From: Acidimicrobiales bacterium | GTDB lineage: Bacteria > Actinomycetota > Acidimicrobiia > Acidimicrobiales > Aldehydirespiratoraceae | Length of the DNA: 64,000 nucleotides | Assembly (NCBI GenBank): GCA_029263175.1 | Contig: JAJCXZ010000106.1 | Coordinates: 5,214 to 69,213 of the forward strand | Direction of reading: 5' to 3' | Part shown: in pieces, positions 7,363 through 64,000 of the stretch | Position numbering within the stretch: position 1 is the stretch's first letter | How the letters are laid out: every line of letters begins with the position of its first letter | Program-made: the position numbers and the translations under genes | Notes under the pieces: generated by a model | The model's input: only the letters and a program-made list of their open reading frames with translations | What the model was told of the DNA's origin: nothing | Database searches by the model: none

Positions 7363-7426
7363 GGCGCCTGGCATCACTCCTTCCGAGCCCGCCGGGCCGT
7401 CACAGCCGTGCTGTACTGACTGCACT

Positions 7427-17740: not shown

Positions 17741-18601
17741 GTGGCCGAGGATCAGCTCGACCTTTTCGCCTCGAGCGATCCGCCACCGGACTACCCCCTG
17801 ACGCTCGGACACGCCACACTCACGGCTGTCCCAACACGCTCGATCCTCACTCGGGCATCGGGCTTCATGTCGGACTACGACTACACACTGAATCCGTATT
17901 CCGGGTGTAGCTACGGCTGCACCTACTGCTATGCCGCATTCTTCGCCCGATCCGAGGAGCGGCGCGACACCTGGGGCCGATGGGTCGAGGTAAAGGAGAA
18001 CGCCCTCGACGTTCTTCGACGGATGCGGAGCGATCTACGCGGCAAGACCGTCTACATGAGCAGCGTTACCGATCCATACCAGCCGATCGAGCGGCGTCTC
18101 GGGCTGGTGCGCTCGCTGCTGGAGGAGCTTGCGCCACGAGGAGTCCGCCTAGTGGTCCAGACGAGAAGCCCGATCGTTGCGCGCGACATCGACGTGTTGG
18201 GTCGATTCGGTGCAGCACGAGTGAACATGACCGTCACCACCGACAGCGACAGGGTCCAGAGGGCGTTCGAACCGCATTGCCCGACCAACCAGAAGCGGCT
18301 TGCCGCGATCACCGAGGTTGCCGCCGCCGGGCTTCCCACTGCGATCACCATGACGCCGCTGCTTCCCCTGGAAGATCCAGAGTCATTCGCCACCGAGCTG
18401 CATTCCACCGGCGTCCGCGACTTCGTAGTCCAGCCCTTCCACGCAGACCGGGGCAAGTTCATCGCTGGTACCCGCGACGCGGCGCTTCAGCTAGAGCGGG
18501 AGATGGACTGGACGGCGGAGCGCTATCGAGCAGCGGTGGCGGTCCTTCGAAGCCAGCTCCCGGGCCTGAAAGAAGGACGGGAGGGCTTCGCTCCCGAATG
18601 A
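17741..18601 (+). CDS. Radical SAM protein, SplB/COG1533-like
   Basis: GTG 17741 lies 2 nt after the previous stop. CxxxCxxC cluster: NPYSGCSYGCTYCYAAFF. TIM-barrel-like remainder (VYMSSVTDPYQP, LVVQTRSP). The ORF-track start at 17609 lies inside the upstream gene. Confidence 0.78.
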   Translation: MAEDQLDLFASSDPPPDYPLTLGHATLTAVPTRSILTRASGFMSDYDYTLNPYSGCSYGCTYCYAAFFARSEERRDTWGRWVEVKENALDVLRRMRSDLRGKTVYMSSVTDPYQPIERRLGLVRSLLEELAPRGVRLVVQTRSPIVARDIDVLGRFGAARVNMTVTTDSDRVQRAFEPHCPTNQKRLAAITEVAAAGLPTAITMTPLLPLEDPESFATELHSTGVRDFVVQPFHADRGKFIAGTRDAALQLEREMDWTAERYRAAVAVLRSQLPGLKEGREGFAPE

Positions 18602-43228: not shown

Positions 43229-43607
43229 GGCTTCCTCCCAGAAGTTGGGGTTCCTCGCCCGAGACCAGATGGTGCTGCATTTCGCCTATCGGTCTGACGG
43301 AGACGTTCTTGACCCGAGCGCCAGTTCGAGGGCCCTCAGCCTCGGCTGGCCGACACCCGACTCCCGCCGGTCGGGCAGGACCCGCCCGGATCGGTTCTTG
43401 TACCACCGAATACGGCGCGCTCACCGTCAAAGGTCCCCGTGTAGTCACCGATCGACCCGCTGCTGCACGAACAGGCCGAAGACGAGGTCGGTGTTGAAGT
43501 CGGCGATGGAGCCGTAGATGACTCCGCTGAGGATGTGAGCCCTGCAGAGCCCGAGCAGCCCAACTCCACCCCGATCTACGATGCATCCACCCGGCGGGGA
43601 GGACGAC

Positions 43608-44915
43608 ATGCAGAACGGTTATGAACCGGAGTTCATCGGCGACGGGATCAGGATTCCGCTGCCGACGTTCAACCGCAGCCTCGGCCAATCAGTGCTGCGA
43701 AAGCCAGGACTGCGGGACGGTAGGTTTTCGGATCACACCCACTTCACCCTCGTCATGAACGAGCACACCCGGCAGCTGATCTACTCCGCCTACAACATCG
43801 ACCAGTCCAAGTTCCGGCCCAAGCCGCCCGATGAGGGCAAGCGCTCGTGGAAGAAGGACAAGGTAATCGGTGAGGAGCATCAGCTCGGCAACGAGTACTA
43901 CAAGGATCGCAAGAACTCGATCGGTGAGACGGTCCCCAATCCCTACGACCGCGGCCACATGGTCATGCGCTTCAACAACATGTGGGGCGACACCAACGCC
44001 GAGTCCGACAAGGCCGGCAAGGAGACGTTCGTCTACGCCAACTCCTCTCTGCAGCACGAGAACCTGAACCGCGACGAGTGGAAGGAACTCGAGCTGAACA
44101 TCGTGCGTGACTTCCAGCACGCCGCGAACGGTCGCCTCGCCGTCTTCACCGGGCCGATCTTCGGCGATCTCGACCGCCACGTCATCCTCTCCGACCAGAA
44201 CAGTGCTCGGGTGCCGTCCGGGTTCTTCAAGGTGATCTGTTTCCGCAACACGCACGCCGTCGACGACGAACCGCTCGGTGTCCTCACCTTCGCCATCTTC
44301 CAGGACGATCAGGTGCTGCGCGACAAGTTGGGGGCGGCGACCGTCAAGACGCACCGTCCCTACCAGATCACCATCACCGAGCTCCAGAACCTGACCGGCA
44401 TCCACTTCGGGGAGGAGCTCTTCGAACGCAATCCTCTCTTCTTCTTCGACAACGAGCTGCGCAACGAAGCCGTCAACGTGCACACGGTTCCCGAGCGCAT
44501 TCCCGTCAACACCGGCGAAGATCTCATCGGCGATGCCGGCGATCGGCGCTGCGAAGTCGAGCCGCTGGCCCAGCGCCGCATCATCATCAACTCGGCAATG
44601 ATCAACCCTGAGGGGAACGAGCACCGAGGCGAATGGATCTCCCTGCACAACCGGGGCAACCGCAAGACGAGCCTGCGCAAGTGGCGGCTCGTGGACGGCC
44701 AAGGCCGGGAAGTGGTGTTGCAGCACAGCATCAACGCCGGGGAATCGCTACGCCTCAAGGGGCCCGACCGAGGCAAGATCAGACTGAGCAACGCCGGTGG
44801 CAGCCTGGTCCTCTTCGACCAGCATGACTGCATCATCGACCACGTGACCTGGTCTCGCCCCGAGGTGCGGCGCCTCGGTGATGGGGTGGCGTTCATGTTC
44901 GACCACGGCCAGTAG
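43608..44915 (+). CDS. DNA/RNA non-specific endonuclease (Endonuclease_NS) fused to a C-terminal lamin-tail domain (LTD)
   Basis: GGGGAGGA RBS before ATG 43608. Active-site block NPYDRGHMVMRFN and SSLQHENLNRDEW. LTD-like INPEGNEHRGEWISLHNRGNRKTSLRKWRLVD..GESLRL. Confidence 0.8.
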   Translation: MQNGYEPEFIGDGIRIPLPTFNRSLGQSVLRKPGLRDGRFSDHTHFTLVMNEHTRQLIYSAYNIDQSKFRPKPPDEGKRSWKKDKVIGEEHQLGNEYYKDRKNSIGETVPNPYDRGHMVMRFNNMWGDTNAESDKAGKETFVYANSSLQHENLNRDEWKELELNIVRDFQHAANGRLAVFTGPIFGDLDRHVILSDQNSARVPSGFFKVICFRNTHAVDDEPLGVLTFAIFQDDQVLRDKLGAATVKTHRPYQITITELQNLTGIHFGEELFERNPLFFFDNELRNEAVNVHTVPERIPVNTGEDLIGDAGDRRCEVEPLAQRRIIINSAMINPEGNEHRGEWISLHNRGNRKTSLRKWRLVDGQGREVVLQHSINAGESLRLKGPDRGKIRLSNAGGSLVLFDQHDCIIDHVTWSRPEVRRLGDGVAFMFDHGQ

Positions 44916-48345: not shown

Positions 48346-48987
48346 TCAGTCGAGCCAGGGTTCGTCGAGTTCCCACGGTTGCACGTTGTCGAACGACGTC
48401 TCTTTCGGCCGGCGAGGTTCGGCCATCCAGCGGGCCGCCGCGACACCGGCGATCAGGCCGAACAGATGGCCCTCCCACGAGATGAACTCCTGCGGGACGA
48501 GGCCCGCGATCATTCCGCTGTAGAAGCCGAGGGCGAGAAACGCCGGTGCGAGGGCGCGGGGCCGGCGTTCGAAAGCTGCCGCACCGAGAATGGCGCCGAG
48601 ATAGCCGAAGACGACCCCGCTCGCCCCTATGTGGTTGCTGCCACCGGCCGTCAGCCAGGTGAGGCCCCCGCCCACCACGACGGTGACCACGGTGACACGG
48701 GCCCAGTACCGCATGCCGCGGATGCTGACGAGGCCGCCGAGAGCGAGGAGAGGCACCGAGTTGGATGCCACGTGACCGAAATCGGAATGTAGGAACGGCG
48801 CCCACAGGATCCCGTCGAGTCCGTCGGCCTCGCGGGGGTGGATGCCGTTGCGCTGAAGCCGGTCGCCGAGCGCGACCGTGTCGACGATCTCGACGGCCCA
48901 GATCAGCACCAGGCCGACAACGAGCAGACCGATCGGTGTCCCCAGCAGACGCCGGTGCCACGGCACCGGCTCCTCATCCGGGGTCAT
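48346..48987 (-). CDS. Rhomboid-family intramembrane serine protease
   Basis: ATG 48987 with GAGGTGAGG RBS. WAPFLHSDFGHVASN, catalytic GASGVVFG and EGHLFGLIAG. The ORF-track extension to 49512 is Pro/Ser-rich. Confidence 0.85.
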   Translation of the reverse strand: MTPDEEPVPWHRRLLGTPIGLLVVGLVLIWAVEIVDTVALGDRLQRNGIHPREADGLDGILWAPFLHSDFGHVASNSVPLLALGGLVSIRGMRYWARVTVVTVVVGGGLTWLTAGGSNHIGASGVVFGYLGAILGAAAFERRPRALAPAFLALGFYSGMIAGLVPQEFISWEGHLFGLIAGVAAARWMAEPRRPKETSFDNVQPWELDEPWLD

Positions 48988-49144
48988 GGCCTCACCTCGT
49001 CTCCACGTCTCTCGGCTACGCGACCTTACGGGTCGCGTCGACACTGATCCGATCGGCCCGAAGTCGCAGGTTCCCAGGGCGTGGCAAGGACGCGACGGGT
49101 ACTGTCGTGATGCTGGGGGACAGCACCACCGATGGGGGGACGAA

Positions 49145-49321
49145 ATGGCCGAGAAAGGCAATGGTGAAGGCGCCGTGGATTCAGGCGGCACCGGGATGGA
49201 CAATCTCGATGAGGGGACGGGCGGTGGCACAGCCATAGCTCCCGACGAACCATGCATCATCTGTGGCGAGGCCCGCGGCGCAGCATCGCCCTGCCCGCGC
49301 TGTGGCACCACAGTCACGTGA
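49145..49321 (+). CDS. Small acidic Gly-rich zinc-ribbon peptide, paralog 1 (58 aa)
   Basis: MAEKGNGEGAVDSGGTGMDNLDEGTGGGTAIAPDEPCIICGEARGAASPCPRCGTTVT, with a CxxC-x9-CxxC motif. Confidence 0.55.
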   Translation: MAEKGNGEGAVDSGGTGMDNLDEGTGGGTAIAPDEPCIICGEARGAASPCPRCGTTVT

Positions 49322-49357
49322 TGAGGACACCGCCTAGCGGCGTACAAGGAGAGAACA

Positions 49358-49519
49358 ATGGCTGAAAAGGGAAACGGAAGCGGCTCAGGGACCGACGAAG
49401 AGGTCTGGGATCCCGGTGAAGAGGGTGGTGGTGGCCCCGCCCCGGACGCAGATCCTTGCGGTATCTGTGGTGAGCCACGAGGCGACGCGAACCCGTGCCC
49501 GCACTGCGGCATGGAGTAG
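49358..49519 (+). CDS. Small acidic Gly-rich zinc-ribbon peptide, paralog 2 (53 aa, below the ORF-track cutoff)
   Basis: My translation: MAEKGNGSGSGTDEEVWDPGEEGGGGPAPDADPCGICGEPRGDANPCPHCGME. RBS AAGGAGA. Shares MAEKGNG and PC.ICGE.RG.A.PCP.CG with paralog 1. Confidence 0.55.
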   Translation: MAEKGNGSGSGTDEEVWDPGEEGGGGPAPDADPCGICGEPRGDANPCPHCGME

Positions 49520-51792: not shown

Positions 51793-52269
51793 GTGCTGAG
51801 GTACCTCACCATCGCGATGCTCGTGGTGTCGGTATTGGGCATCATTTTGAGCATCGTCCTGGTCGGCCGCGAGAGCCGCCTCAAGCCCAGGTTCGACGTC
51901 GCCCGCATCGTCATCATGGGCGCGGTCGCGGCAGTGATGACCTTCGCCATAGACATCACCACCCCGACCTGGGCCCTCGGGGCTGCACTCGGCGGCGGCA
52001 TCGTGATCGGCACACTCCAAGGCCGGAACCTCACCGTTCGTTCGACCGACAAGGGGTTGTACGCCCGACGGACCACCGTCGCCGTATTCGCGTTCATCGC
52101 CGGTCTTGCGGTCACGCAGGTCGCCGGCTACCTCAAGCGCACCGGGGCGATCCAGGTCGGCGTTGCCATGACCGTGCTGTCGGTTGCGGTCGCGGTCGGT
52201 CTCCTGGTCGGCCGCCAACCGAGGGTGCGAGCCGCCAAGGCTGAGGCCCAAGCTGAGGCCGTTCAGTGA
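51793..52269 (+). CDS. Four-TM membrane protein, stand-alone version of the TM module embedded in the 59037-64000 giant protein
   Basis: 158 aa. About 50 percent identity by eye: LQGRNLTVRSTDKGLYARRTTVAVFAFIAGLAVTQVAGYLKRTGAI..VGLLVGRQP versus SQGRNLVLRMGEKGPMGKRSTLAVLAFGVGLIVTQIAGLLNRSGAI..IGLIVGRRP. Confidence 0.7.
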   Translation: MLRYLTIAMLVVSVLGIILSIVLVGRESRLKPRFDVARIVIMGAVAAVMTFAIDITTPTWALGAALGGGIVIGTLQGRNLTVRSTDKGLYARRTTVAVFAFIAGLAVTQVAGYLKRTGAIQVGVAMTVLSVAVAVGLLVGRQPRVRAAKAEAQAEAVQ

Positions 52270-55200
52270 AGCGCCTCCTCAAGGTGGCCGTTGTGCTGGG
52301 CGTCCTCCTCCTGCTGTCCGGTTGCAAAGTCGAGATCGACCATTTCTTCGAAGAGGACGGGTCGTCCATCTTCCAGTTCGCGCTGGGAGCGGAGATCGAC
52401 CCGGACGAGGGCGAGTCGATCGACTGCGAGACCGAGGCCGGCGGCGAGTTCAGTGCGTCCTACGCCAACCTGAGTCAGCGCGGCAGCGAAACGTGGTGCA
52501 CCACCGGGATTCCCGTCGACTCGCCGGTCGAGCTCGCGTATCTCTACGCCTCATTCAACGAAGAAGCCGAGTTCCTACGGGTCAACTGCCTCAGCGTGGA
52601 AGACGGCCACCTGATCTACGACATCGAGGTTCTGCTCGACAGCTCCGGGGTCGAGGAGGGTGACTCGCTCGTCTGGCGGGTGACCGCTCCGGGCGCGATC
52701 ACCTCGACCAACGCCGACAGCCAATCCGGCGACACCGTGACGTGGAACCTCACCCGGCGCGACGGCTGGGTGTCTCTCGAGGTGAATGCCGACGATGGCA
52801 ACTGCCCGGCTGCGGGCTTCGCCCTCGATCTCGTCGCCGAGACCCCAACCACTGGCACGGCATTCATATCGGTGGCGAAGCCGACCACAAGCAGCGCCGA
52901 TGCCGACGCTCTCGTCGCTGCTCTCAGCCGCGCCGGCTGGCAGGTCACCGACCAGGGCAGCGAGATCGATGCCAGCCAGACATGGGCCGACGAAGCCGGA
53001 CTCCAGACCATCGCCGATGGTCTTGCCCCGATCACCGGCAGCGATCTCACCGTCGCCGACCTCAGCGAAACCGACGGCGACGGCAACAGCGAGTTCGAAG
53101 CCCGACTCGATCTCTCGTTCTACGAAGCCTTCTGGCAGGGCATCAACCCTGCCATCGACGATCCGCCGTTCCGGTTCTCGTGGACACCGCCCCCCGGCGA
53201 CGCCGAGTCAACCGGCGACTGGACGGTGCCGGACGCCCGCACGTTCAGCTGGGCTGTCTCTGATGCGGGCCGCATCTTCAACATGGCGACCAGGGTCACC
53301 CCCACCGAAGCCGAGGACGAGGGCGAGATCATTGTCGGCGACGAATCCGAGGGTGACGGATCAGACGACGGCGGCGACGACCCGGACGACGCCGGTGATG
53401 GCACCTCCGATGCTCCCGGTGACGCCGATGACACGGCGGCCGAACAAGCTGCGACCGACGTATTGGTTGATCAAGTCGCCGGCGACGACGCCGACGATGC
53501 AACCCGGGCCGCGACAGCTGCAGCCATAGCAGCACTGCTGGGTGCGGCGGGCCTGACCGCGGTTTCCATGGCGGAGGCGGGCCTGTCGTTGGCCGACGTA
53601 GCCGACGCAGTCCGGCATGGTGATCTCGACCGCCTCTCGAGCTCGCCCCCCGAAGATGAGCCGGTGCCCGACGGCGGTATTCGTATCTGGGACCAGGCCG
53701 CGGGGCGGGCCCAGGTGTTCGACAGTTGGGCCGACGCCGACCGATTCACGGCAGAGCTGCGCGCCCGCGAGCAAGGAGGGTTCCTCCGCGACACCGCCGA
53801 TGCCATGGACCGGAGTCGGGCTCAAGGGGCGGCCGCCGACGCCGCCGAACTGGCAGACATTCGAGCCGACCGAGCAGCCATCGACTACTGGACCCAGCTC
53901 GTTCAGGCCCGAGAAGAAGCCCTGGAGCGTTTGGAGGCAGCCGAAGCGCAACAGGCTGCGATAGCCGACGAAGGCTGGCAGGAAGTCATCGACGACGCGT
54001 TCGACGGAATCGTCCGTGAAGTCGATGCGCTCCCCGGCGAGATCCGCGACGCGGCATGGGCCACCCGCCAAGCACTCGATGCGGTGGCGGCGGCCATCGC
54101 CGATCCCGACAACTACGACCTCCAGGTCCTCGCCGAAACCGGACTCGAGACCATCTACGACGTGCTCGGCATGATGTCCGGCGGCGCCTACGGCGACGGA
54201 TTCGAGAGTGCGCTGGCACCGGTCAAGACCGTGGCCCGCGTCGGCGGTGCCCTCGGCCAGATGGCCTGGAACGACAAGGGCGCGTTCTTCGAGATGATCA
54301 CGCCGATTGGTGACCTCAAGGACTCGATGGACCCCGACAAGACGCTGGGTCAGCGCCTCGGGCACATGGGCTTCGCTCTCGCCGACATCTTCGGCACCGT
54401 TGCCGGCTTTGGGCTCGCCGACGAAGCCATGGAGCTGGGCCGACTCGCCGGGGCCACCGACGATGCGCGCCACGCCGTCGACGCGCTCGACGCGGCTCGC
54501 AAAACCGAACGGGCAACCGACGCCGTCCAGGCCGCTCGCAATGTCGAACGCACCACCGATTTGCTCGATACATCACGCGACATGGACCGGGCGTCCGACG
54601 CAGTCCAGGCGGCCCGCGATGCCGAGAAGGCCACCGAGGCAGCGGAGGCGTCTCTCTTGGCGAGCAGGGCCGACGAGCTCGTCGAGTCGCAGCGGGTGGC
54701 CGAGACGCTCAACCCGAGCAAATACAACGAGGCCACTGTCGCGGCTCGGCGTGAGGCATGGGACCAGGTTCAGAAGGAAGGCGCGGAGGCGGTCGCCGAT
54801 TTCAAGAAGCTGCCCGCCGACGATCTCGCCCGTCGTGAAGCGGCCCTGCGAGTGCAAGGCAACAAGCAGGCGCTGATGGAAATGAAGGACAACGGCCGCG
54901 TCAGCGAAGAACTCCAGGTCGCGTTCAACAACGAGATGCGCGGGATCTACAACGAGACCGACGACAAGGTCATCGATTGGCTGCTCGACCCCAAGACCCG
55001 CCCCGACGGTGTTCCCGAGCTCACGCCGCCCTTGAACGAGGTGCTCGACCCCAACGGTCGGATCACCCACGTCATCGACGCGGACGGAAACTCGATACGA
55101 CTCTTCGAGCCCACGAACGCCAACCCCGACATCGTGTCGGTCGGGGCCGACCGTGACTTCACGGTCTATGTAACGGGCGCGGATGGAGTCGAGAGGGCCG

Positions 55201-55886
55201 TGCCCAGCGGCCAGGTCGAATCCGTCTACAACCAGGCCTTCTACGAAGCGTCCGGCGGCGACGACATGGCTCGTTCGCTGGGCATCGAGCCCGACGCCGA
55301 CGCGTTCGCGACCCGGATGGACCAGGCGATCACCGACGACGTCCATCCCGAGTCGTACAAGAACGTCGAGACGGTCATTGGTGCACCCGGCAAGGAGATC
55401 GGTGACGTTCAACAGGTCGGTCAAGCGTCCGCATACAAGCACGATCACTGGCAGGCACGGGCGGCGGAGTCCAGCGAGAAGGCGGCGGCCGCAGCCGAAG
55501 CGGGCGACGACGCAGCTGCCGCGGCATGGGCGGCAAGGGCTGAGGACGAACACTTCGAGGCAACTCGCCAGCTGGTGAAACAGAACGGCAATCAGGTGGT
55601 GAACCGGCATGCGGCGCTCGCCGCCCAGGTCGAGGAAGCAAAACAGCTGGGCACGCTGGCACCCGACTTCGAACTCAACGCGCTTCCCGACGACCTGCAG
55701 CGGGCGATGGCCTTCATGAACGACTCCAAGACGGTGGGCATGGCGCCCGTCGATGTCGAGATGCAGATGCTGGCCGAGCTGGGGATGACGCCCACCGATG
55801 CGGCACAACGCATGGGCGGCTACCTCGAGTCGATGGAGAAGTTGCGACCGCAGGCCATCATCGATCTACAGCGAGGCCTGCCGTGA
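52266..55886 (+). CDS. Large lipoprotein, polymorphic-toxin-like (locus A), with variable C-terminal domain of unknown function
   Basis: GTGA overlap with the 4-TM gene. Lipobox MKRLLKVAVVLGVLLLLSGC. D/G-rich linker. Hydrophobic AAIAALLGAAGLTAVSMA. The central region is collinear with the locus B protein, including ITPIGDLKDSMDPDKTLGQRL (pre-toxin-TG-like). DA.R helical repeats. Unique last ~390 aa. Confidence 0.75.
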   Translation: MKRLLKVAVVLGVLLLLSGCKVEIDHFFEEDGSSIFQFALGAEIDPDEGESIDCETEAGGEFSASYANLSQRGSETWCTTGIPVDSPVELAYLYASFNEEAEFLRVNCLSVEDGHLIYDIEVLLDSSGVEEGDSLVWRVTAPGAITSTNADSQSGDTVTWNLTRRDGWVSLEVNADDGNCPAAGFALDLVAETPTTGTAFISVAKPTTSSADADALVAALSRAGWQVTDQGSEIDASQTWADEAGLQTIADGLAPITGSDLTVADLSETDGDGNSEFEARLDLSFYEAFWQGINPAIDDPPFRFSWTPPPGDAESTGDWTVPDARTFSWAVSDAGRIFNMATRVTPTEAEDEGEIIVGDESEGDGSDDGGDDPDDAGDGTSDAPGDADDTAAEQAATDVLVDQVAGDDADDATRAATAAAIAALLGAAGLTAVSMAEAGLSLADVADAVRHGDLDRLSSSPPEDEPVPDGGIRIWDQAAGRAQVFDSWADADRFTAELRAREQGGFLRDTADAMDRSRAQGAAADAAELADIRADRAAIDYWTQLVQAREEALERLEAAEAQQAAIADEGWQEVIDDAFDGIVREVDALPGEIRDAAWATRQALDAVAAAIADPDNYDLQVLAETGLETIYDVLGMMSGGAYGDGFESALAPVKTVARVGGALGQMAWNDKGAFFEMITPIGDLKDSMDPDKTLGQRLGHMGFALADIFGTVAGFGLADEAMELGRLAGATDDARHAVDALDAARKTERATDAVQAARNVERTTDLLDTSRDMDRASDAVQAARDAEKATEAAEASLLASRADELVESQRVAETLNPSKYNEATVAARREAWDQVQKEGAEAVADFKKLPADDLARREAALRVQGNKQALMEMKDNGRVSEELQVAFNNEMRGIYNETDDKVIDWLLDPKTRPDGVPELTPPLNEVLDPNGRITHVIDADGNSIRLFEPTNANPDIVSVGADRDFTVYVTGADGVERAVPSGQVESVYNQAFYEASGGDDMARSLGIEPDADAFATRMDQAITDDVHPESYKNVETVIGAPGKEIGDVQQVGQASAYKHDHWQARAAESSEKAAAAAEAGDDAAAAAWAARAEDEHFEATRQLVKQNGNQVVNRHAALAAQVEEAKQLGTLAPDFELNALPDDLQRAMAFMNDSKTVGMAPVDVEMQMLAELGMTPTDAAQRMGGYLESMEKLRPQAIIDLQRGLP

Positions 55887-57514
55887 GCTGGGTCGTGCTC
55901 GACCCATCACCGCAGGTGGCGGCCGCGCTTGCGTTGCCGGACTCGGTTCCCGTGCGCCAGGAACAGCTTGCCGCGATCACGGGCGACGGTCGGATGGACC
56001 TCGGCGCCCTCGCCGACGAACTCCATTACGTCTGCGGCGAGGCGCCGGAGATGGTGCCCGTCCTCGGGGCCGGTATCGCCAAAACCTCGTTCTTCGCCGC
56101 GGGAGACGCCCTCGCCGCTCATGACTTCGCGCGGGCCGAGCTCCACGCCACCACCGGACTGTCGTATCGGCCCGACGACGAACCACTTCGAATGCTGCTC
56201 TCCCACGCCCTGCACGGCCAGGGTCGCCACGATGCCGCCATCGTCCACGGCGACATGGTGGTCGCGAAGGCGCGAGGCGAGGGGCGGATGTCGCCGGCGT
56301 TCTGGCTGACCCATGCTCGAGCGCTGGACGAAGCGGGCCGGTCCGCTGATGCCCTGCCCTTGCTCGAAGATCTCACACCGATGTGGTCCGGACGTGAAGA
56401 CTTCCTCGCCCTGGCCGCTCACATCCGCCGGCGGGCCGCGGAAACACCACCGGCGGAGCCGGCCTCCACACCGGAGACGGCGTCCACACCGGAGACAGGG
56501 TCACGTCGTAGGCGAGCCCCGATGCTCCTGGTGCTCCTGCTGCTGGTCGCGGGTGGCGCTGCAGCCGGCTACTTCCTCTTCGTGACCGATGACGAGGCGC
56601 CCACCGACACGGCTCTACCCTCCGATTCGACCACCGTCGTCCCGACAACAACCTCGCCACCGACCACCGCGGCACCAACCACTACGCCACCGACCACGGG
56701 TGCACCAACAACCGCCGCCCCGACCACAATTCCGACCGTCGTCGTGCCGCCTGTCGCAGGCACGTCGCAGGCAGACGCGACGGCAGCACTCGAAGCCCTT
56801 GGGCTCTCGGTCGAAGCTGTGACAGTCGAGGCCTACGATGCCGGCGTCGGGCAGGTCATCTCGATCGAACCGGCCGCGGGAGCGGAACTCCGCGCTGGTG
56901 ATGTTGTTGTCTTGACCGTGGCGGCGAGGCCGACGGAATGCAACGACGCCCCGGCCGAGATCCCCGCTACTCCATTCGAAGATCTCGCCGGACTCAACGA
57001 CGTGACCCGGGCTGCGATCGATTGGGCCACCGCCGTCGGCCTCGTCAGTCCCGGCACCGCGTTCAACCCGACGCAGCCCATGACCCGCGGTGCGGCCGTG
57101 ACTGTGCTGTGGCGCTACATGTGCGAGCCCGCCGCTACCGACACCCCCGTCGTCTTTGACGACGTGGACCCCGGTGCGTTCTATGCCAAGCCGGTCGCTT
57201 GGGCCACAACTGAAGGTGTCATGGGAGGCACCACGCCGAGCACCATGAGCCCCGACGACTCGATCACTCGTGCGGCGTTCGTCACCATCCTGTGGCGAGC
57301 CCTGGGCGAGCCGACGAGCGACGCCGAGTTGCCATTCGAGGATGTTGATCCGGGTGCTTTCTACGCCGCTTCGTTGCGCTGGGCCTTCGGCGAAGGCCTC
57401 GTTTCAGGAACGACGGCGACCACCTTTGCGCCGAACGAACCGATCGATCGGATCACCACCATCCTCTTGTTCGACCGCACCGAACGGGGCATCGATCCCC
57501 TCGTCGGCGGCTGA
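55883..57514 (+). CDS. Cognate partner (locus A): N-terminal helical-repeat domain + TM + Pro/Thr linker + PASTA + three SLH domains
   Basis: GTGA overlap with the toxin-like gene. The N-domain (DLGALADELHYV...HDFARAELHATTGL..HGQGRHDAAIV) resembles the 58459-59040 protein. TM LLVLLLLVAGGAAAGYFLFV. PASTA VVVPPVAGTSQADATAALEALGLSVE..GDVVVLTV. SLH x3 (FEDLAGLN.., FDDVDPGAFYAKPVAWA.., FEDVDPGAFYAASLRWA..). Confidence 0.7.
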   Translation: MSWVVLDPSPQVAAALALPDSVPVRQEQLAAITGDGRMDLGALADELHYVCGEAPEMVPVLGAGIAKTSFFAAGDALAAHDFARAELHATTGLSYRPDDEPLRMLLSHALHGQGRHDAAIVHGDMVVAKARGEGRMSPAFWLTHARALDEAGRSADALPLLEDLTPMWSGREDFLALAAHIRRRAAETPPAEPASTPETASTPETGSRRRRAPMLLVLLLLVAGGAAAGYFLFVTDDEAPTDTALPSDSTTVVPTTTSPPTTAAPTTTPPTTGAPTTAAPTTIPTVVVPPVAGTSQADATAALEALGLSVEAVTVEAYDAGVGQVISIEPAAGAELRAGDVVVLTVAARPTECNDAPAEIPATPFEDLAGLNDVTRAAIDWATAVGLVSPGTAFNPTQPMTRGAAVTVLWRYMCEPAATDTPVVFDDVDPGAFYAKPVAWATTEGVMGGTTPSTMSPDDSITRAAFVTILWRALGEPTSDAELPFEDVDPGAFYAASLRWAFGEGLVSGTTATTFAPNEPIDRITTILLFDRTERGIDPLVGG

Positions 57515-57553
57515 ACGGGAGCGTTGGCGCAGCGCGGCAGAAGGCGGTCGGGT

Positions 57554-57724
57554 TCAGGTTGCGCTGGCGTCGCTCGCTCCGAACGCCGCCCACCAGCGAC
57601 GGCCGGCTTCCTCCGGTCCGTAGTCGACCCGCAGACGCTCGAAGATGGCGGCCAGAGCTTCCGAGCCCTTGGCTGCGTTGATCGTCTCGATCAACGGGTC
57701 GAGCCACTCGGGAACCGAGCCCAT
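57554..57724 (-). CDS. Possible small protein (56 aa, below the ORF-track cutoff)
   Basis: My translation: MGSVPEWLDPLIETINAAKGSEALAAIFERLRVDYGPEEAGRRWWAAFGASDASAT. Third codon positions are GC-rich. Starts 9 nt after the upstream stop. Confidence 0.35.
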   Translation of the reverse strand: MGSVPEWLDPLIETINAAKGSEALAAIFERLRVDYGPEEAGRRWWAAFGASDASAT

Positions 57725-57733
57725 GACTATGGC

Positions 57734-58114
57734 TCAGCCGTCGATCCGCGAGTTGACCGCCTCGACCAGTCCGTCGAGATCATCGACGGTCACGGTGAGG
57801 GCCGAATGATCGCGGAAACCGATCACTTTCGGTACCCGCTCGGCGAAATGCACGCACACGCCACCGTGGGTGGCCGTGCCGAACGTGAGCCCGTCATCCA
57901 CGAACGACAATCGCATTCCGACGGCCTTGAACCACTGATAGTCGCGCGTCGCGTGACACTCGGTGACGTTGGCGAGCGGCGTCTCCAACTTCTTGCGTCC
58001 GAATGTGGCGGTGAACGTGTCGGCGGTGACGGTCACCCCGTCGTCGTTTCCCACGCCGAACGGCGCCAGCAGCATCCGGTAGCGGCGGTCCAGGCGGTAA
58101 GGGAAGAAAGCCAA
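57734..58114 (-). CDS. Hypothetical protein (126 aa)
   Basis: ORF in an operon-like series with its neighbours. Beta-rich composition, no motif recognised. Confidence 0.45.
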   Translation of the reverse strand: MAFFPYRLDRRYRMLLAPFGVGNDDGVTVTADTFTATFGRKKLETPLANVTECHATRDYQWFKAVGMRLSFVDDGLTFGTATHGGVCVHFAERVPKVIGFRDHSALTVTVDDLDGLVEAVNSRIDG

Positions 58115-58120
58115 GGGGAC

Positions 58121-58438
58121 TCAGATCCCGCCGGCGCTGAGAGCGTTGGCGATGCGGTTGATGGTGGCGACGAGATCGACGTGCTCGGTTTCGAAGCGGC
58201 CGATGGCGTCGGAGACGTGGTCGAGCAGGTTGGGGTCGTCGTCCTCGTCCTCATCGACCTCGGATTCGATGCGGCCGATCAGTGTGGCCAGGCGGTCGCG
58301 GTCGTCGTCGCCCAACCCCTCGCTCTGGGCGATCGTGGCCCGCAATTCGTCGAGCAGCTCTGTCACGTCTTCGTCGTTCACGGCGAATCCTTCATCATCG
58401 GTTTCGCCCAAACGTACAGGCAAGCGCCGTCGGGTCAT
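58121..58438 (-). CDS. DUF4404-like small acidic helical protein
   Basis: ELLDELRATIAQSEGL..LATLIGRIESEV..LLDHVSDAIGRFETEHVDLVATINRIANALSAGGI fits the DUF4404 pattern, including the terminal GI. Confidence 0.5.
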   Translation of the reverse strand: MTRRRLPVRLGETDDEGFAVNDEDVTELLDELRATIAQSEGLGDDDRDRLATLIGRIESEVDEDEDDDPNLLDHVSDAIGRFETEHVDLVATINRIANALSAGGI

Positions 58439-58458
58439 CTGCCCACGGCGGGGCTGAC

Positions 58459-59040
58459 CTACTCGGCCGAGTCAACTCTCGCCAGGAGGCGGGTCAGTGC
58501 TTCTGGCTCGCGCTCCCACGTGCCACGCAGCGGCTCGGCGAGTCGGCGCGCCAGAAGCGGTCGTTCTGCCTCTATCGCGCTCCGCACGGCGAGCACTCGC
58601 AGGCCGGTGGCAACGCCGTGGCTGTCGCCTTCGAGCACTTCCATGTACCCGACCAGTGCATCATCGTGACGCTCGACGCGGGCCTGGGCGATCGAGCGGG
58701 CGGCCACACACTCGAGATCCTGAGGTGCCCACGCCGTGGCCATCGTGGCCAGCCGTAACGCCTCGTCGAATCGGCCCTCGCGATCAGCGATGCGCGACGC
58801 GAACAGCGCCACGCGGGCGAGCGTCGGCGCCTGGTGATACACGGCTTCGCGCCGCGTCTCGGCCGCAAGCACCGCATCGGCCTCATCGGCCAGCGCGGCC
58901 AGATCGACCTTGCCCTCGTCATCCACGACACGACCCGCAGCGGACGAGGAGACGACGAGACGGCGAGCCGGCAGACCCATGCCCTGGGCCAGGGTGCGGT
59001 CGATCTCGATTGCGACGAACCGATCGGCAGCAGCGTTCAT
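58459..59040 (-). CDS. Cognate partner (locus B): soluble helical-repeat (TPR-like) protein, putative immunity/chaperone
   Basis: ATGA overlap with the upstream giant gene. VDLAALADEADAVL...ARVALFASRIADREGRFDEALRLAT.. is similar in layout to the N-domain of the 55883 protein. Confidence 0.6.
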   Translation of the reverse strand: MNAAADRFVAIEIDRTLAQGMGLPARRLVVSSSAAGRVVDDEGKVDLAALADEADAVLAAETRREAVYHQAPTLARVALFASRIADREGRFDEALRLATMATAWAPQDLECVAARSIAQARVERHDDALVGYMEVLEGDSHGVATGLRVLAVRSAIEAERPLLARRLAEPLRGTWEREPEALTRLLARVDSAE

Positions 59041-62000
59041 GATTGGCTCAACCTCGGTAGCTCGTCGAGGCGAGGGCCTCGGCGCAGGACGCCATCGCTG
59101 CCGATCTGAAGGATCATCTCCGCCCCCGACAAATGGGCGTCCTCCAGCGACTCGTGGAGCTTGATCGCCTTCTGATATGCCTCATGCCATTCCGGCGAGC
59201 CGGGTGTGTGCCCCCTGGTGAGGTAGTTGATGACGTCGGTCTCGGGGCCATGCTCAATGCCGGCGCCGCTCTTCTTCAGGTCCTCCATCACCTCGAGGAA
59301 CTTCTCGCCGGAGAGATGGGTGCCATCGGGATTGCGGAGATACACGAGGTCGATATCACCTGCGTACGGGATCTCTCTGCCGCTTTCGCCGACCTGGAAC
59401 AGCATGCCGTTGCGTTCCACGACCTCGCCCCGTAGCACCATGCCGTCGACGTCGCCGCGCAGCTTGTAGTACTCCTCCAAGCGCTGGGCATAGCGTTGCT
59501 GCACCGCCGACTGCAGCTCGGTGGGTACGTTGCGCATGTTGGGCTCGGTCGGGCGGAAATAGCCCACCAGCCCCTCGTCGGCCCGGTTGGCACCGATGTA
59601 GGTGTCGAGGTTGTTGATGGTCTTCGACTTGATGTTCACCGGCTTCGGCACCGCCTTACCGTCGCGAATCCAGTGCATCGAATCCGGATTGGTCGACCGT
59701 GAACCGATCTGGATGTCGTACTTGTTGGCGATGGCGGCGAGTTCGTCGACCTGGGCCTGGCTGTAGCCGACCTCGTGCATGACGTTGCGTTCGATCGCCG
59801 CGCCTTCCGGCAGATTGTCCACCCAGCCGGGTGGCGGCGGCGCGAGATCGTCGGCCACGCGCCCTGCGTCCGCGGCGAGGTCGGCTACCCGGCGCGCTTC
59901 GGTCGCCTCGGCCAACCGACGAGCATTGGCGGCAGCATCCGTTGCCCGGCGCGCGTCCTCGGCGGCTTCGGCCGCCCGGCGGGTATCTCCGGCTGCATCT
60001 GCCGCTCGACGCGCATCTTCGGCGGCTTGGGCTACACGTTCGGCGTCGGCGGCCGCATCGGCAGCCCGCCGTGCGTCGGCCGCAGCATCGGCAGCCCGTC
60101 TTGCGTCGGCCGCGGCTTCGGTCGCTCGCCGTGCGTCCGCGGCTGCGTCGACGGCGCGTAGCGCGTCGACACCTTCGTCCACGTAGCCCGAGCCGAACAT
60201 GAGAGCCTCTGCCGCGAAGGCGGCAAAGTGCTGCATCCGATCATGCAGCGGCAGATCTGGATCCATCGACGCAATGAGCTGGTCGATCCCGGTGAGCGCC
60301 TGCACGATCGCGCCGGCGTTGTCTCGCGCCAACGCGCCGACCGTGGCGATCGTGTCGGCGGCCTGCACGAAATGGTCATACGTCTCCGGGTCTCCGGTTA
60401 CCGAACCGATGAACACGTCGTAGGCCGTGTCCCGCATCGTGTCCCACAGAATTGTGCCCGCGTCTGGATGACTCGCTGCCTCCGCCACGGCATCGAGGGC
60501 GCCGCGCAGCGCGATGCCGATGGTGCGGGTGGTCTCATAGATGCCCTCACCCATGAGGAGGACGGCGTTCTCGTCATCGAGCCGGGTCAGAGCGACGATG
60601 TCGTCCCAGATGCGATCGTTGAACGTGGACGCCACCTCCGCCACCCAGTTGACGGGGTTGTCCCAATAGGTCTGATCGCGGGCAGCTTGCCCGAGGTCCA
60701 AAGCGTCGATGCGCGCCGCGATCTCGTCGTAGCGGTCCTGGGCCCGGCCGAGATCCTCGACCCGTTGCCAGCCGTCACGGATCTCCTGCATCAGCGCGTC
60801 GTGCTCGACCTGGCTTCGGCCCGCGAGGCCGGCGAAGCGCTCAGCCGCGGCCTCGTCGCTCTTGCCCTCGTCGATGATCGATTGCGCCCGCCGATCGCGG
60901 TCCCTGTTCGCATCGCGCTGATCGGCGATGAGTTCTTCGAGTTCGGAGCGCGGCACGCGTCTTCCGCCCCAGTCGTAGAGCCCGTCCTCGCCGGGCAACA
61001 TCGGCTGACCGCGCTCGTCCATCACTGTCACTGCGGCCTCGGCATCGGCCTCTTCGCGCAGCGCGTCGGCCAGGCCGCGTAGTCCGCCGTTGCGGAACGC
61101 ATCGGCCAGTTCCTGGGCCGACATTCCCGCGTCAGCCAATCCGGCCGCCAGCAATCCCGCCGCACCCATGGCCCCGACGAGTGCGGCGATCGCCGCGGCT
61201 CGGGTCTCGTCATCGGCACCCTCGGGTACGAACAGATCGATGGTGTCGGCATCCACGCCGAGCGCTTCGGCCTGATCCTCCAACAGGTCGGCCTCGGTCG
61301 GTGCGGCCGCCGTGGTGGGGACCGGATCCGGCTCGGGCAGGCCAACCTCCCCGAGCAGTTCGGTGGGGCCTGACCAATTCGGGCCCTGCCGGCGCCACGA
61401 TTCGATCAGCGCCGGGATCCGCGGGTCGCTCGGATCGCAGTGATGGCACCGGGCCCTGATCGACCCCCAGCTGAACACGCCGCGGATCGACACGTTGGGT
61501 CCGTCCGCCGTCGCCGTGTCGGTGAAGATGAAGATCTGGCCATCGGCGAGGTCGTAGTTGCTGATCGAGGTGCACTGTTCCTGGTCGGCCCGGTTGACCG
61601 AGACACCGTTCGCATCAACGTCGCAGCGATCGGCCTCGGGAATCTCGTGGGGCTGGAACCGTGTTGTCATCCCGTCGCGTGCGTTCCACTGTTGGTTCAC
61701 ATACGTCGCCGCGTCAGACGACGCAAGGTCGTAGTTGACCTCCATCCGGGTGGCGCCGCGGGCATCGCTGCCGTAGACCATCCCCGATGTGCAGTTGGTG
61801 GAGTGGGGGTCGATGTAGAGCTTGGTGATCGTGTCGGCGTCTACGTCGCCGGGCTGCCAGCTGCCGTCGTCCATACCGGCGACCACGTTCTGATATGGCG
61901 CACATGACCCCGCCGGCGCCTCCGGCGGTGGGGGAGCGGCGGCGAGCGCCTCGTCGATCGTGAACCCGTCGATGTCGCAGTCGACCACCACGTCGGCGAG

Positions 62001-64000
62001 CGGCTGGCTCGGGGCGACATTGCTCTGCTCGCCGTCGATCAAGACCTTGGTCCACGCGCCGCTGCCCACCGACTCGGTCAGCGGTCGAATGCAGCCGTCG
62101 AGCCCGGCAAGCCGTGACTGACCGAACGGCGATGGTGTGGTGAGCAGCGAGATCGGTGCCAGCTCGCCGACCATGTCGACGGTCTGCACCGTGACCGTGC
62201 CCGCAATGTCTCGCTCGATGGTGCCGGTGACCGCATAGCCCACCGGGAATCCTTGACCCTCGATGAGGTCGCCGAAGGTGTAGCTCTCGGTCAGGTCGTA
62301 GGTGCTGGTCCGGTCGCCGACGATGGATGTCCACGACGTGGTCGTGTCGAGATCGATCGGCGCGGCGATGAAGCCCTCGGTCACATCGATGGGAACGAGT
62401 GGCTTGTTGTCGTTGATGCCGACACCGCCGACAATGCCCAGGTCCTCCCATACGATCAGGTCCCTGACCGGATCGGCGATCTGCTCCTCGTCTTGGGCGT
62501 ACGCCTGGGTCAGCGGTACGACGAGGGGACCGAGCAGGATGGCCCCGACGACCACGGCAAGCGTGCCGGCCCGGAGTTCGGCGAGCTGGGGCCGCCGTCC
62601 CACGATCAGGCCGATGGTGACCGCAGCAGACAGGGCGGTGAGCGCGATCCCGAAGGTGATGGCGCCGCTGCGGTTGAGTAGACCCGCGATCTGGGTGACG
62701 ATCAAGCCGACACCGAACGCCAGAACCGCCAGCGTCGAGCGCTTGCCCATCGGGCCCTTCTCACCCATGCGCAGAACCAGGTTGCGACCCTGCGACAGGC
62801 CGAGACCGGCACCGACCACCAGGGCGAGCGCGATTGCCCACAGGGGTGTCGCCGTGTTGAACACGACGACGGAAACGGCAGCGACGATCGCCATGATGGC
62901 GAGACGCAGGGCCTCCATCGTCGGCCGGATTCGGTTCTCTCGCCGCGCCAGCAACAAGGTGATGAGCAGCATCACCAGCGAAAACGCCAGTAGCACCGGT
63001 GTGATCAGCTTCGCCCACAACGGGCCATCGCTGGATGCGCCACTACCGGAGCCCGTGTCCTCGGCGACCGCATCGAGCGTGGGGGCCGCACTGCCAGCGG
63101 GCGCGGCCGCCGGCGCGATGCCGGAGCCGTCGACGTTGATGTCGATCACGCCGACCGACAGTGCCGGGTCGAGGGCGGCCGCGAGATACGGCGGCACGTC
63201 CTGAAAGTCGGTGCTGCGCGGGATGAACGGCACCCCCTCGCAGCTCTGCGCCTGGGGCGCCACCAGCGCCATCAGCCGGATCGCCTCGGCTCGAGCCACC
63301 TCCACGTCGAACTTACGGTCGGCCTGGCGGTAGTCGAAGCGAGCGCCGACGGCGAGATTGTCGGGGCCGTCGACGAATCCGATACCGAAATCGAAGCTGT
63401 CCTCGTAGCTGCAGACGGTGGTGAGGAGGGGGTCGCCCATGCCTTCGGCGGCCCACTGCACCGTCATGAGTAGCTCCGACCACAGATCGTCGCCGTCCAC
63501 AGCGCCGCCCCACCAGCATCGGGCCTCCCAGACGCCGGTGTAACTCTCGGGTCTGATGCTCGGGTCGTCGAACTGGATCTCGAGGTTCGGCAGCGGGTCG
63601 CTGCACGTCATGCCCGGAGGTGGACACCGGTCGACCGCCACCGGTGCGACCTGCATCGCGAGCGACTCGACTGCTGCCTGCCACTCGGTTCGGTGGTCGT
63701 CATAGGGGTCCGGCGCGTAGTCCGCTTCCGCGCGAATTGAGTAACCCTCGACACCGGCAAAAAGCACGATGCGGTCGTCCTGCTCGAACGTGGGAGCGGT
63801 TGTGCAATTGCTGGGCAACGCTGTATCGGGTTTGTTCCATGTGAGCGTGATGGTCACGCCACCGCTGTCATAGGTACAGCGAACCGTTGCGGTCTCGCCG
63901 CCGACAGACGGCTGCTGCTCGACGACTTCGTAGCCGCCGACTGCGGGGCACGTCACCAACCCGGCGTAGAAGTCGAGCTCCTCCTGGGAGGCCGGCTCAG
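59037..64000 (-). CDS. Giant multi-pass membrane polymorphic-toxin-like protein (locus B), 5'-partial, with C-terminal CyaA/EF/ExoY-like nucleotidyl cyclase domain
   Basis: The reading frame stays open from 63959 to the window edge (no stop in ..EPASQEELDFYAGL-VTCP), so the true start lies outside the window. Cys-rich N-region. Five TM helices including the 4-TM module. Signal-like LVVPLTQAYAQD. Central region collinear with locus A. ADARR repeats. Last 266 aa carry R-STNPDSMHWIRDGKAVPKPVNIKSKT, PYAGDIDLVYL and IEHGPET. Confidence 0.8.
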   Translation of the reverse strand, partial: EPASQEELDFYAGLVTCPAVGGYEVVEQQPSVGGETATVRCTYDSGGVTITLTWNKPDTALPSNCTTAPTFEQDDRIVLFAGVEGYSIRAEADYAPDPYDDHRTEWQAAVESLAMQVAPVAVDRCPPPGMTCSDPLPNLEIQFDDPSIRPESYTGVWEARCWWGGAVDGDDLWSELLMTVQWAAEGMGDPLLTTVCSYEDSFDFGIGFVDGPDNLAVGARFDYRQADRKFDVEVARAEAIRLMALVAPQAQSCEGVPFIPRSTDFQDVPPYLAAALDPALSVGVIDINVDGSGIAPAAAPAGSAAPTLDAVAEDTGSGSGASSDGPLWAKLITPVLLAFSLVMLLITLLLARRENRIRPTMEALRLAIMAIVAAVSVVVFNTATPLWAIALALVVGAGLGLSQGRNLVLRMGEKGPMGKRSTLAVLAFGVGLIVTQIAGLLNRSGAITFGIALTALSAAVTIGLIVGRRPQLAELRAGTLAVVVGAILLGPLVVPLTQAYAQDEEQIADPVRDLIVWEDLGIVGGVGINDNKPLVPIDVTEGFIAAPIDLDTTTSWTSIVGDRTSTYDLTESYTFGDLIEGQGFPVGYAVTGTIERDIAGTVTVQTVDMVGELAPISLLTTPSPFGQSRLAGLDGCIRPLTESVGSGAWTKVLIDGEQSNVAPSQPLADVVVDCDIDGFTIDEALAAAPPPPEAPAGSCAPYQNVVAGMDDGSWQPGDVDADTITKLYIDPHSTNCTSGMVYGSDARGATRMEVNYDLASSDAATYVNQQWNARDGMTTRFQPHEIPEADRCDVDANGVSVNRADQEQCTSISNYDLADGQIFIFTDTATADGPNVSIRGVFSWGSIRARCHHCDPSDPRIPALIESWRRQGPNWSGPTELLGEVGLPEPDPVPTTAAAPTEADLLEDQAEALGVDADTIDLFVPEGADDETRAAAIAALVGAMGAAGLLAAGLADAGMSAQELADAFRNGGLRGLADALREEADAEAAVTVMDERGQPMLPGEDGLYDWGGRRVPRSELEELIADQRDANRDRDRRAQSIIDEGKSDEAAAERFAGLAGRSQVEHDALMQEIRDGWQRVEDLGRAQDRYDEIAARIDALDLGQAARDQTYWDNPVNWVAEVASTFNDRIWDDIVALTRLDDENAVLLMGEGIYETTRTIGIALRGALDAVAEAASHPDAGTILWDTMRDTAYDVFIGSVTGDPETYDHFVQAADTIATVGALARDNAGAIVQALTGIDQLIASMDPDLPLHDRMQHFAAFAAEALMFGSGYVDEGVDALRAVDAAADARRATEAAADARRAADAAADARRAADAAADAERVAQAAEDARRAADAAGDTRRAAEAAEDARRATDAAANARRLAEATEARRVADLAADAGRVADDLAPPPPGWVDNLPEGAAIERNVMHEVGYSQAQVDELAAIANKYDIQIGSRSTNPDSMHWIRDGKAVPKPVNIKSKTINNLDTYIGANRADEGLVGYFRPTEPNMRNVPTELQSAVQQRYAQRLEEYYKLRGDVDGMVLRGEVVERNGMLFQVGESGREIPYAGDIDLVYLRNPDGTHLSGEKFLEVMEDLKKSGAGIEHGPETDVINYLTRGHTPGSPEWHEAYQKAIKLHESLEDAHLSGAEMILQIGSDGVLRRGPRLDELPRLSQS
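59850..60160 (-). repeat. In-frame tandem repeat, about 30-nt period (about 10 units), encoding AADARRAADA-type helical repeats
   Basis: For example gcatcggcagcccgccgtgcgtcggccgca / gcatcggcagcccgtcttgcgtcggccgcg at about 60055 and 60085. Protein: DAAADARRATEAAADARRAADAAADARRAADAAADAERVAQAAEDARRAADAAGDTRRAAEAAEDARRATDAAANARR. Confidence 0.8.

Follow-up and report, generated by a model that had tools for sequence, protein, structure and literature searches.

What kind of enzyme sits at the C-terminal end of a very long membrane protein of an Acidimicrobiales bacterium, and what does it do beside a small gene that is coupled to it? The locus lies in a 64,000-nucleotide stretch of DNA (hereafter the window; contig JAJCXZ010000106.1 of assembly GCA_029263175.1, positions 5,214 to 69,213), on whose minus strand a long open reading frame (ORF) ends at 59037 and is followed by a partner gene at 58459-59040. 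An initial annotation, drawn from the translation, had likened the C-terminal domain of the long protein (hereafter the tip) to the class II nucleotidyl cyclase toxins CyaA, EF and ExoY. Comparisons of sequence profiles and of a predicted structure confirmed the tip as a remote, compact homologue of the class II catalytic domain. As to its role, we lean, with little more than even confidence, towards a delivered and cofactor-independent toxin that would consume nucleoside triphosphates (NTPs), most likely forming cyclic nucleoside monophosphates (cNMPs) and pyrophosphate (PPi), and that would be accompanied by an immunity partner. The tip and its motifs, with residues numbered as in the listed ORF, are as follows.

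59040..59813, minus strand: C-terminal class-II-cyclase-like domain (the tip), residues 1383-1640, delimited by the AlphaFold2 model, the family hidden Markov model (HMM) and Foldseek
59619-59702, minus strand: motif 1, the triphosphate-binding segment SRSTNPDSMHWIRDGKAVPKPVNIKSKT, residues 1420-1447, with R1421, K1439, K1444, K1446 and T1447
59538..59573, minus strand: a fourth motif, GLVGYFRPTEPN, absent from the initial annotation, with G1463 and P1470 invariant
59337-59372, minus strand: motif 2, IPYAGDIDLVYL, residues 1530-1541, with the metal-binding D1535 and D1537
59238-59258, minus strand: motif 3, IEHGPET, residues 1568-1574, with H1570-G1571

Homology of the tip to class II nucleotidyl cyclases

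We used two alignments, one of the window domain with 33 short members of its family (A1, 34 sequences) and one of nine close relatives (A2). When the A1 profile was compared with all PDB sequences, the 14 best matches were all CyaA, EF or ExoY and the rest lay at noise level; the E-values were 3e-7 for CyaA, 3.6e-5 for EF, 6.5e-5 to 1.6e-4 for the ExoY modules of Vibrio MARTX proteins and 9e-3 for ExoY of P. aeruginosa (PaExoY). HMMER aligned this profile with the CyaA chain 1yrt in three collinear segments that correspond to motifs 1-3, at the very strings that had been quoted for CyaA, which proved correct, and in the translated minus-strand frame (59037..>64000) the three motifs stood in the place and order first reported. 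Scanned singly, 14 of the 34 A1 members matched the Pfam family PF03497 (best E = 2.8e-6), and in all seven members with a reported region the match fell on the N-terminal third of the model; 23 further Pfam families were matched by one A1 member each.

The structural comparison pointed the same way. With A1 as the multiple sequence alignment, AlphaFold2 returned a model with a predicted local distance difference test score (pLDDT) of 90.7 and a predicted template modelling score (pTM) of 0.82; from the single sequence the prediction was unusable (pLDDT 35). The top 21 Foldseek matches of the model in the PDB were all EF, CyaA or ExoY, with E-values from 3.4e-6 and a probability of 1.0, and a control search against the viral structure library BFVD gave nothing better than E = 0.1. 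No viral relatives turned up in that search or in a scan of viral contigs. The profile and structure matches were thus both significant and exclusive to EF, CyaA and ExoY, and the class II link that had been read from the motifs stood.

Several results weigh against a close tie. The window domain scored only 12.6 bits against PF03497 (E = 0.14), under the gathering threshold of 25 bits and limited to profile positions 3-58 of 173, so that the proposed comparison with this family succeeded for some relatives of the window copy and fell short for the copy itself. The window sequence alone found no match in the PDB with phmmer, and the narrow A2 profile found no cyclase there, which makes the sequence link dependent on the broad family profile. 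The Foldseek template modelling scores (TM-scores) were low (0.29-0.38, with a root-mean-square deviation of ~14 Å), indicating that the superposition covers only part of the fold.

Searched exhaustively with phmmer, a set of 1.84 billion cluster representatives yielded 622 relatives at E <= 1e-3 and 349 at E <= 1e-10, each counted as the representative of a cluster at 50% identity. A word-indexed homologue search returned one relative with the single sequence, three with A1 and none with the middle region plus trunk of the protein, and was probably swamped by low-complexity words. We counted conservation with the A1 HMM over 163 domain copies in the 150 best representatives of the 622, of which 150-153 copies were aligned. 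Seven residues were invariant (R1421, K1439, D1452, G1463, P1470, D1535 and D1537) and K1444, K1446, R1493 and H1570 were kept in at least 98%; D1535 and D1537 occurred in 153 of 153 copies and H1570 in 149 of 150, and the position of T1447 was Thr or Ser across copies. The Lys pair seven residues apart, the DxD and the His-Gly that had been singled out beforehand are invariant or very nearly so (at least 99%), and every catalytic residue conserved in the family is also present in the window copy. D1452, G1463, P1470, R1489, R1493 and H1609 are further invariant residues specific to the family. Such conservation of the catalytic set across ~150 copies points to a family of active enzymes rather than a relic.

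In the HMMER alignment R1421 falls on R41 of CyaA, K1439 on K58, K1444 on H63, K1446 on K65, T1447 on S66, D1535 and D1537 on D188 and D190, and H1570 on H298 (VQHGTEQN). Following established correspondences, we take the EF equivalents to be R329 for R1421, K346 for K1439, K353 for K1446, S354 for T1447, D491 and D493 for the Asp pair and H577 for H1570. The fourth motif, GLVGYFRPTEPN, presumably matches AGYIPVNPN of CyaA, a likeness drawn by eye.

The tip departs from the known enzymes chiefly in length. The distance of 35 residues from D1535 to H1570 agrees with the shortened spacing of about 35 given by the initial annotation, and the gap between D1537 and H1570 measures 32 residues versus 107 in CyaA, 83 in EF and 76 in PaExoY. 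Positions 205-217 of the A1 profile (about 12) span CyaA residues 194-282. Switch A, which binds calmodulin or actin and helps to position the base, occupies residues 199-274 of CyaA, 502-551 of EF and 222-264 of PaExoY (PMC10553838); in the AlphaFold2 model a single strand and a single helix stand in its place. Alignment and model together indicate that switch A is deleted in the tip family. The lid (CB) is also shorter, with 88 residues from the Lys to the DxD versus 122. The tip is thus a compact, divergent branch that lies outside formal PF03497 membership.

The carrier protein, its partner gene and the spread of the family

The remainder of the long protein and the partner gene are laid out as follows; L001 and similar handles denote related loci, and P0002 is an orthologue of the protein.

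63024..64000, minus strand: N-terminal Cys-containing domain, running off the window (open frame; orthologue P0002)
62496..63023, minus strand: bundle of six predicted transmembrane (TM) helices (hydropathy; residues 313-488)
61263..62495, minus strand: Cys-containing middle region, homologous to proteins of L002 and L003
60159..61262, minus strand: conserved trunk, with an Ala/Gly-rich hydrophobic helix, a charged coiled-coil-like region and a Cys-free helical pre-toxin region
59844..60158, minus strand: linker of Ala/Asp/Arg-rich decapeptide repeats, (AADARRAADA)n, joining trunk and tip (translation)
58459..59040, minus strand: TPR-like partner of 193 residues, candidate immunity protein, its ATG overlapping the toxin TGA (ATGA)

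The frame that ends at the stop codon 59037-59039 is open to the window edge at nucleotide 63998. The listed ORF comprises 1640 residues from a TTG at 63959, and this start did not hold: the true start lies beyond the window, and P0002 (1689 residues, 86% identical) is longer by 49 residues, of which 44 precede the listed TTG. The N-terminus of P0002, MFALIAMVASLVVGVDTAAAQG, is a Sec-type signal peptide, a stretch that is missing from the window copy. The GC content by codon position was 0.70/0.49/0.82, and the third-position value (GC3) argues that the toxin ORF is a real gene. The protein is most likely about 1,685 residues long or more, surface-anchored and polymorphic-toxin-like.

The family HMM spans residues 1369-1650 of the stop-to-stop ORF. 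Ahead of it, the linker holds about ten AADARRAADA-like repeats, which at the DNA level form a 30-nt tandem repeat of 7.4 copies at 59928-60150. The Ala/Gly-rich helix of the trunk lies at nucleotides 61128-61202 (residues 920-944), and the trunk is shared with a paralogue at 52266-55886 (BLASTP E = 1e-9) and with the toxins in L001-L003, L017, L018 and L020. From its composition and from the topology the middle region is predicted to be extracytoplasmic. The six-TM bundle is conserved at the N-terminus of the toxins in L003, L007, L013 and L014, and a small membrane ORF upstream of the paralogue (51793-52269, plus strand) is 43% identical to it; the bundle is thus an undescribed membrane module that these systems conserve. 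Cys is absent from the last 740 residues (901-1640, nucleotides 59040-61262: trunk, repeats and tip), and 16 Cys lie in the N-terminal and middle regions. The Cys-free distal part suggests that this portion may need to be unfolded or translocated. As export signals we found the Sec signal peptide of P0002 and a lipobox, LSGC, on the paralogue.

The paralogue and the gene that follows it bear on how the system should be understood.

52266..55886, plus strand: paralogous toxin-like gene with a lipoprotein signal (LSGC); shares the Ala/Gly helix and the trunk, but its tip of ~400 residues differs
55883..57514, plus strand: unusual fusion in which a TPR-like partner-family domain (residues 4-162) is joined to a TM helix, a Pro/Thr linker, and PASTA and SLH repeats; overlaps the paralogue stop

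The paralogue gave no match to the cyclase HMM, and its ~400-residue tip matched no Pfam, NCBIfam or PADLOC model. One trunk with unrelated tips is a hallmark of polymorphic toxins, and the polymorphism is seen here in the paralogue within the window and in the loci examined. Separately, the stretch TNANPD...GADRDF in the paralogue tip was considered as a set of cyclase motifs and rejected, because its spacing is wrong and the HMM does not match it. The PADLOC PD-T4-6 matches of the 55883-57514 protein run through its PASTA domain only.

The partner at 58459-59040 showed a weak Pfam match to TPR_19 and no signal peptide; against NCBIfam its matches stayed at noise level (E 0.07 and 0.10). An HMM of the genes that follow the related toxins in L001 and L002 matched it with E = 4e-7. 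The same TPR-like family directly follows the tip in L003, L016, L017, L019 and L020, and it lies downstream of nine related toxin copies. We observed a second partner family of ~310-400 residues downstream of the tip in L004, L005, L006, L013, L014, L015, L021 and L022; it follows a more distant tip clade (31-40% identity), and its members show a faint EspG-like match and often end in a double zinc ribbon. In L002 the TPR partner is itself followed by a fragment of this second family (18206-18739), and the TPR partner of L019 ends in a zinc ribbon. Beyond the partner, the downstream sequence yielded no third conserved gene.

That the type of partner co-varies with the tip clade fits cognate immunity, and promiscuous immunity superfamilies are familiar from polymorphic toxin systems. 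Some features of the partner speak for another function. An HMM of the trunk matches exactly the toxins that have the TPR-like partner, the partner family is also found fused to PASTA and SLH beside the non-cyclase paralogue, and that TM-PASTA-SLH protein has a faint match to a type III secretion system (T3SS) chaperone. Since the family tracks the trunk and adjoins a non-cyclase tip, a role as chaperone or adaptor is possible. The initial annotation had called the partner immunity-like: the gene is real, translationally coupled and conserved beside the closest relatives, and its co-occurrence with the trunk and with a non-cyclase tip tempers the functional label. To judge from these sequence associations, the partner is most likely an immunity protein that would bind and silence the tip.

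Among the 163 copies the domain was C-terminal in 67, internal in 50 and N-terminal in 11, and it was sometimes duplicated. It occurs fused with a Scabin-like ADP-ribosyltransferase (ART) and four EndoU domains, with a WXG100-like N-terminus of the kind used by type VII secretion systems (T7SS), and with Annexin. The named carriers include giant Streptomyces proteins (up to 6,268 residues) and short Nocardia proteins, and most of the named members examined were called hypothetical, the few others being named for another domain only (EndoU, WXG100-like, OTU). The closest subfamily comes from metagenome-assembled genomes (MAGs) of Acidimicrobiia and other Actinomycetota, with a few Alphaproteobacteria, a distribution that points to an Acidimicrobiia-type bacterium as the most likely source of the window. 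In L008, L009 and L010 (Filomicrobium and Rhodobiaceae MAGs) the domain lies near the N-terminus of proteins of ~1,500-1,600 residues with no recognisable downstream partner gene, a separate way of deploying the domain. Two toxin-partner cassettes stand in tandem in L002 (10001-17976), one with a trunk-plus-tip protein of 702 residues that has no signal peptide and one with a homologue of the window protein split into 389 and 1131 residues. Frameshifts in toxin or partner were seen in L001 and L003 and may be metagenome errors or decay.

No model in Pfam, NCBIfam or PADLOC describes the tip family, and no class II cyclase is among the >150 toxin domains of the 2012 polymorphic-toxin catalogue (PMC3482391). 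In the literature we found no description of the family; the only related item was a passing, low-confidence similarity of a Salmonella Rhs tip to 1K90 (PMC13304343). The catalytic fold is known; what is new is its compact build, the range of taxa that carry it and its biological setting.

Other genes of the window are listed here. The first two lie downstream of the partner gene, and the remainder form a defence island (279-22346, plus strand) more than 27 kb away.

58121-58438, minus strand: DUF4404 protein, a real gene
57734-58114, minus strand: protein of 126 residues with no match, a real gene
279-2435, plus strand: UvrD-like helicase
2470-7362, plus strand: SF1 helicase fused to an MTES_1575 restriction endonuclease
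6971-9478, plus strand: HsdM of a type I restriction-modification system
9475-11867, plus strand: two HsdS
11864-15397, plus strand: HsdR fused to a C-terminal Schlafen/AlbA_2 domain
16050-17738, plus strand: GmrSD
17980-21357, plus strand: another UvrD-like protein

A plus-strand ORF of 381 residues that overlaps the partner gene (57524-58669) was rejected as spurious by codon-position GC. Upstream of the toxin loci we also observed a non-specific endonuclease (Endonuclease_NS) fused to a lamin-tail domain (43581-44915, plus strand) and a rhomboid intramembrane protease (48346-49512, minus strand).

Toxin, effector or sensor

Put in order, the mechanism that we lean towards would run as follows. 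The protein would consist of a Sec signal, the N-terminal domain, six TM helices, an extracytoplasmic region, the trunk, the repeat linker and the tip, the last of which would be delivered into a target cell. There the tip, which retains the triphosphate clamp (Arg/Lys/Lys/Thr), the DxD for two metals and the His that binds metal, would bind NTP-Mg without a eukaryotic cofactor and turn NTP into cNMP and PPi by the two-metal mechanism of class II enzymes. The target would be poisoned by the drain on NTP, by a flood of cyclic nucleotide, or by both, and the coupled TPR-like protein would silence the tip in the producer and its kin. It counts against such delivery that no secretion apparatus is visible in the window.

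The same fold and the same toxic role could serve a different chemistry, either hydrolysis of NTP or nucleotidyl or pyrophosphoryl transfer to another acceptor, and we regard this as unlikely, though it fares best among the alternatives. The position of EF H351 and CyaA H63 is a Lys in 150 of 153 copies (K1444 in the window), and the Asn of switch B (EF N583, CyaA N304), expected five residues after the His, is present in only 39 of 96 copies, with D1575 in the window, in a segment that is weakly aligned. Because switch A contributes to positioning the base in the known enzymes, its loss could likewise alter the chemistry of the tip, and the additional invariant residues of the family and the low TM-scores are consistent with such a change. 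Against it, the phosphate-binding and two-metal residues of the class II cyclases are all kept and in order, and neither the sequence nor the structure searches brought up any other enzyme family.

A slightly weaker case can be made for an anti-eukaryote effector, aimed at protists, fungi or animals, that a host factor would activate by way of some surface outside switch A. The class II cyclases characterised so far are all host-activated (PMC9223806); members of the tip family occur in giant multi-effector proteins of Streptomyces, together with Annexin, and in long alphaproteobacterial proteins that have no partner gene; and the Salmonella Rhs tip with weak similarity to 1K90 has no immunity gene (PMC13304343). 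A coupled partner that is conserved in the clade of the window protein would be needless if the enzyme were inert without a eukaryotic cofactor, and the main cofactor-binding element is deleted, so we consider this explanation improbable for the window protein.

We give a little less credence still to an endogenous membrane receptor-cyclase or abortive-infection sensor. In that arrangement the Ala/Gly helix would cross the membrane as a seventh TM segment and leave trunk and tip on the cytoplasmic side of the producer, where the tip would emit a cNMP signal or kill the cell upon an envelope cue, and the TPR protein would be a regulator. The hydropathy of residues 920-944 (2.04) is indeed a value that TM helices reach, a signal peptide is absent from the partner, and a defence island is present in the same window. 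Against this, the island lies more than 27 kb away, neither the toxin nor the partner matched a PADLOC model, and no cNMP-binding domain or effector was found in the neighbouring genes. Moreover, the tip recurs, often in duplicate, on unrelated scaffolds such as WXG100 and EndoU/ART, paralogues that share a trunk but differ in the tip are a trait of polymorphic toxins and not of sensors, and the L002 copy of 702 residues has the helix without a signal peptide, which would give it the opposite topology if the helix spanned the membrane.

Finally, a chance resemblance of motifs or a catalytically dead relic, for which the sub-threshold Pfam score of the single sequence and the failure of the A2 profile in the PDB might be cited, is very improbable in view of three independent lines specific to class II cyclases (PDB profile matches, Foldseek and Pfam scans), of catalytic residues that are invariant or nearly so across diverged copies and all present in the window copy, and of the GC3 of a real gene.

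Of the roles offered by the initial annotation (interbacterial or anti-eukaryote toxin, endogenous signalling or abortive function), a delivered toxin, whose target may be bacterial or eukaryotic, is favoured over endogenous signalling.

Comparison with known systems

A 2022 review describes class II as EF, CyaA and ExoY-like enzymes, a small group of host-activated virulence factors of Bacillus and of beta- and gamma-proteobacteria (PMC9223806). With these enzymes and the ExoY-like modules of MARTX proteins (PF03497) the tip has in common, in collinear order, the Arg and the Lys pair seven residues apart followed by Ser/Thr, the G-D-x-D and the Q/E-H-G, and like EF, CyaA and ExoY it is the enzymatic module of a larger protein, one that would likewise be delivered. 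It differs in the size of its core (~200-260 residues versus at least 350), in its hosts, which are environmental Actinomycetota rather than Bacillus or beta/gamma-proteobacterial pathogens, and in the coupled partner gene beside it.

Hundreds of clusters in environmental and soil actinobacteria (Acidimicrobiia MAGs, Streptomyces, Nocardia) thus keep the catalytic set and lack the activator switch. We tentatively propose, with somewhat less than even confidence, that this switch-A-less branch is cofactor-independent and that polymorphic toxins of Actinomycetota, and of some Proteobacteria, widely use it as an antibacterial warhead, neutralised by dedicated partner proteins; it would then be the first case of class II cyclases directed at bacteria and not at eukaryotic hosts, and EF, CyaA and ExoY would be host-adapted offshoots that gained the activator switch. 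If active, the tip would provide class II mechanistic studies with a minimal cyclase that needs no cofactor and could serve as a tool, would add cyclic-nucleotide synthesis or NTP depletion to the repertoire of interbacterial toxins, and would bear on the origin of the calmodulin or actin dependence of EF, CyaA and ExoY. A domain definition built from the family would annotate hundreds of toxin genes.

The locus is unlike the anti-phage cyclic-nucleotide defences of the Pycsar/CBASS type, which would be expected to match PADLOC and to have a cNMP-sensing effector alongside. It resembles polymorphic toxin systems (PMC3482391) in several respects: a variable enzymatic tip at the C-terminus of a conserved trunk, a small gene immediately downstream, tandem or orphan-like cassettes, and one tip on many scaffolds and in the company of known toxin domains. 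It differs from them in that the trunk and the six-TM anchor match no described trafficking domain and that its partner is a TPR-like protein with the trunk as a possible site of action. A further point of comparison is offered by the secreted antibacterial protein (ABP) systems of Gram-positive bacteria (PMC13460014). In Actinomycetota and Bacillota these pair a polymorphic toxin of Sec type with an immunity protein in the cytoplasm, for which the partner is the candidate in our locus; here the protein is membrane-anchored and no secreted serine protease is adjacent, the rhomboid gene being ~10 kb away. In its predicted mode of action the tip would resemble nucleotide-targeting interbacterial toxins such as the (p)ppApp synthetase Tas1 and the ADP-ribosyl cyclase toxins (PMC12356396), since like them it would consume an essential nucleotide.

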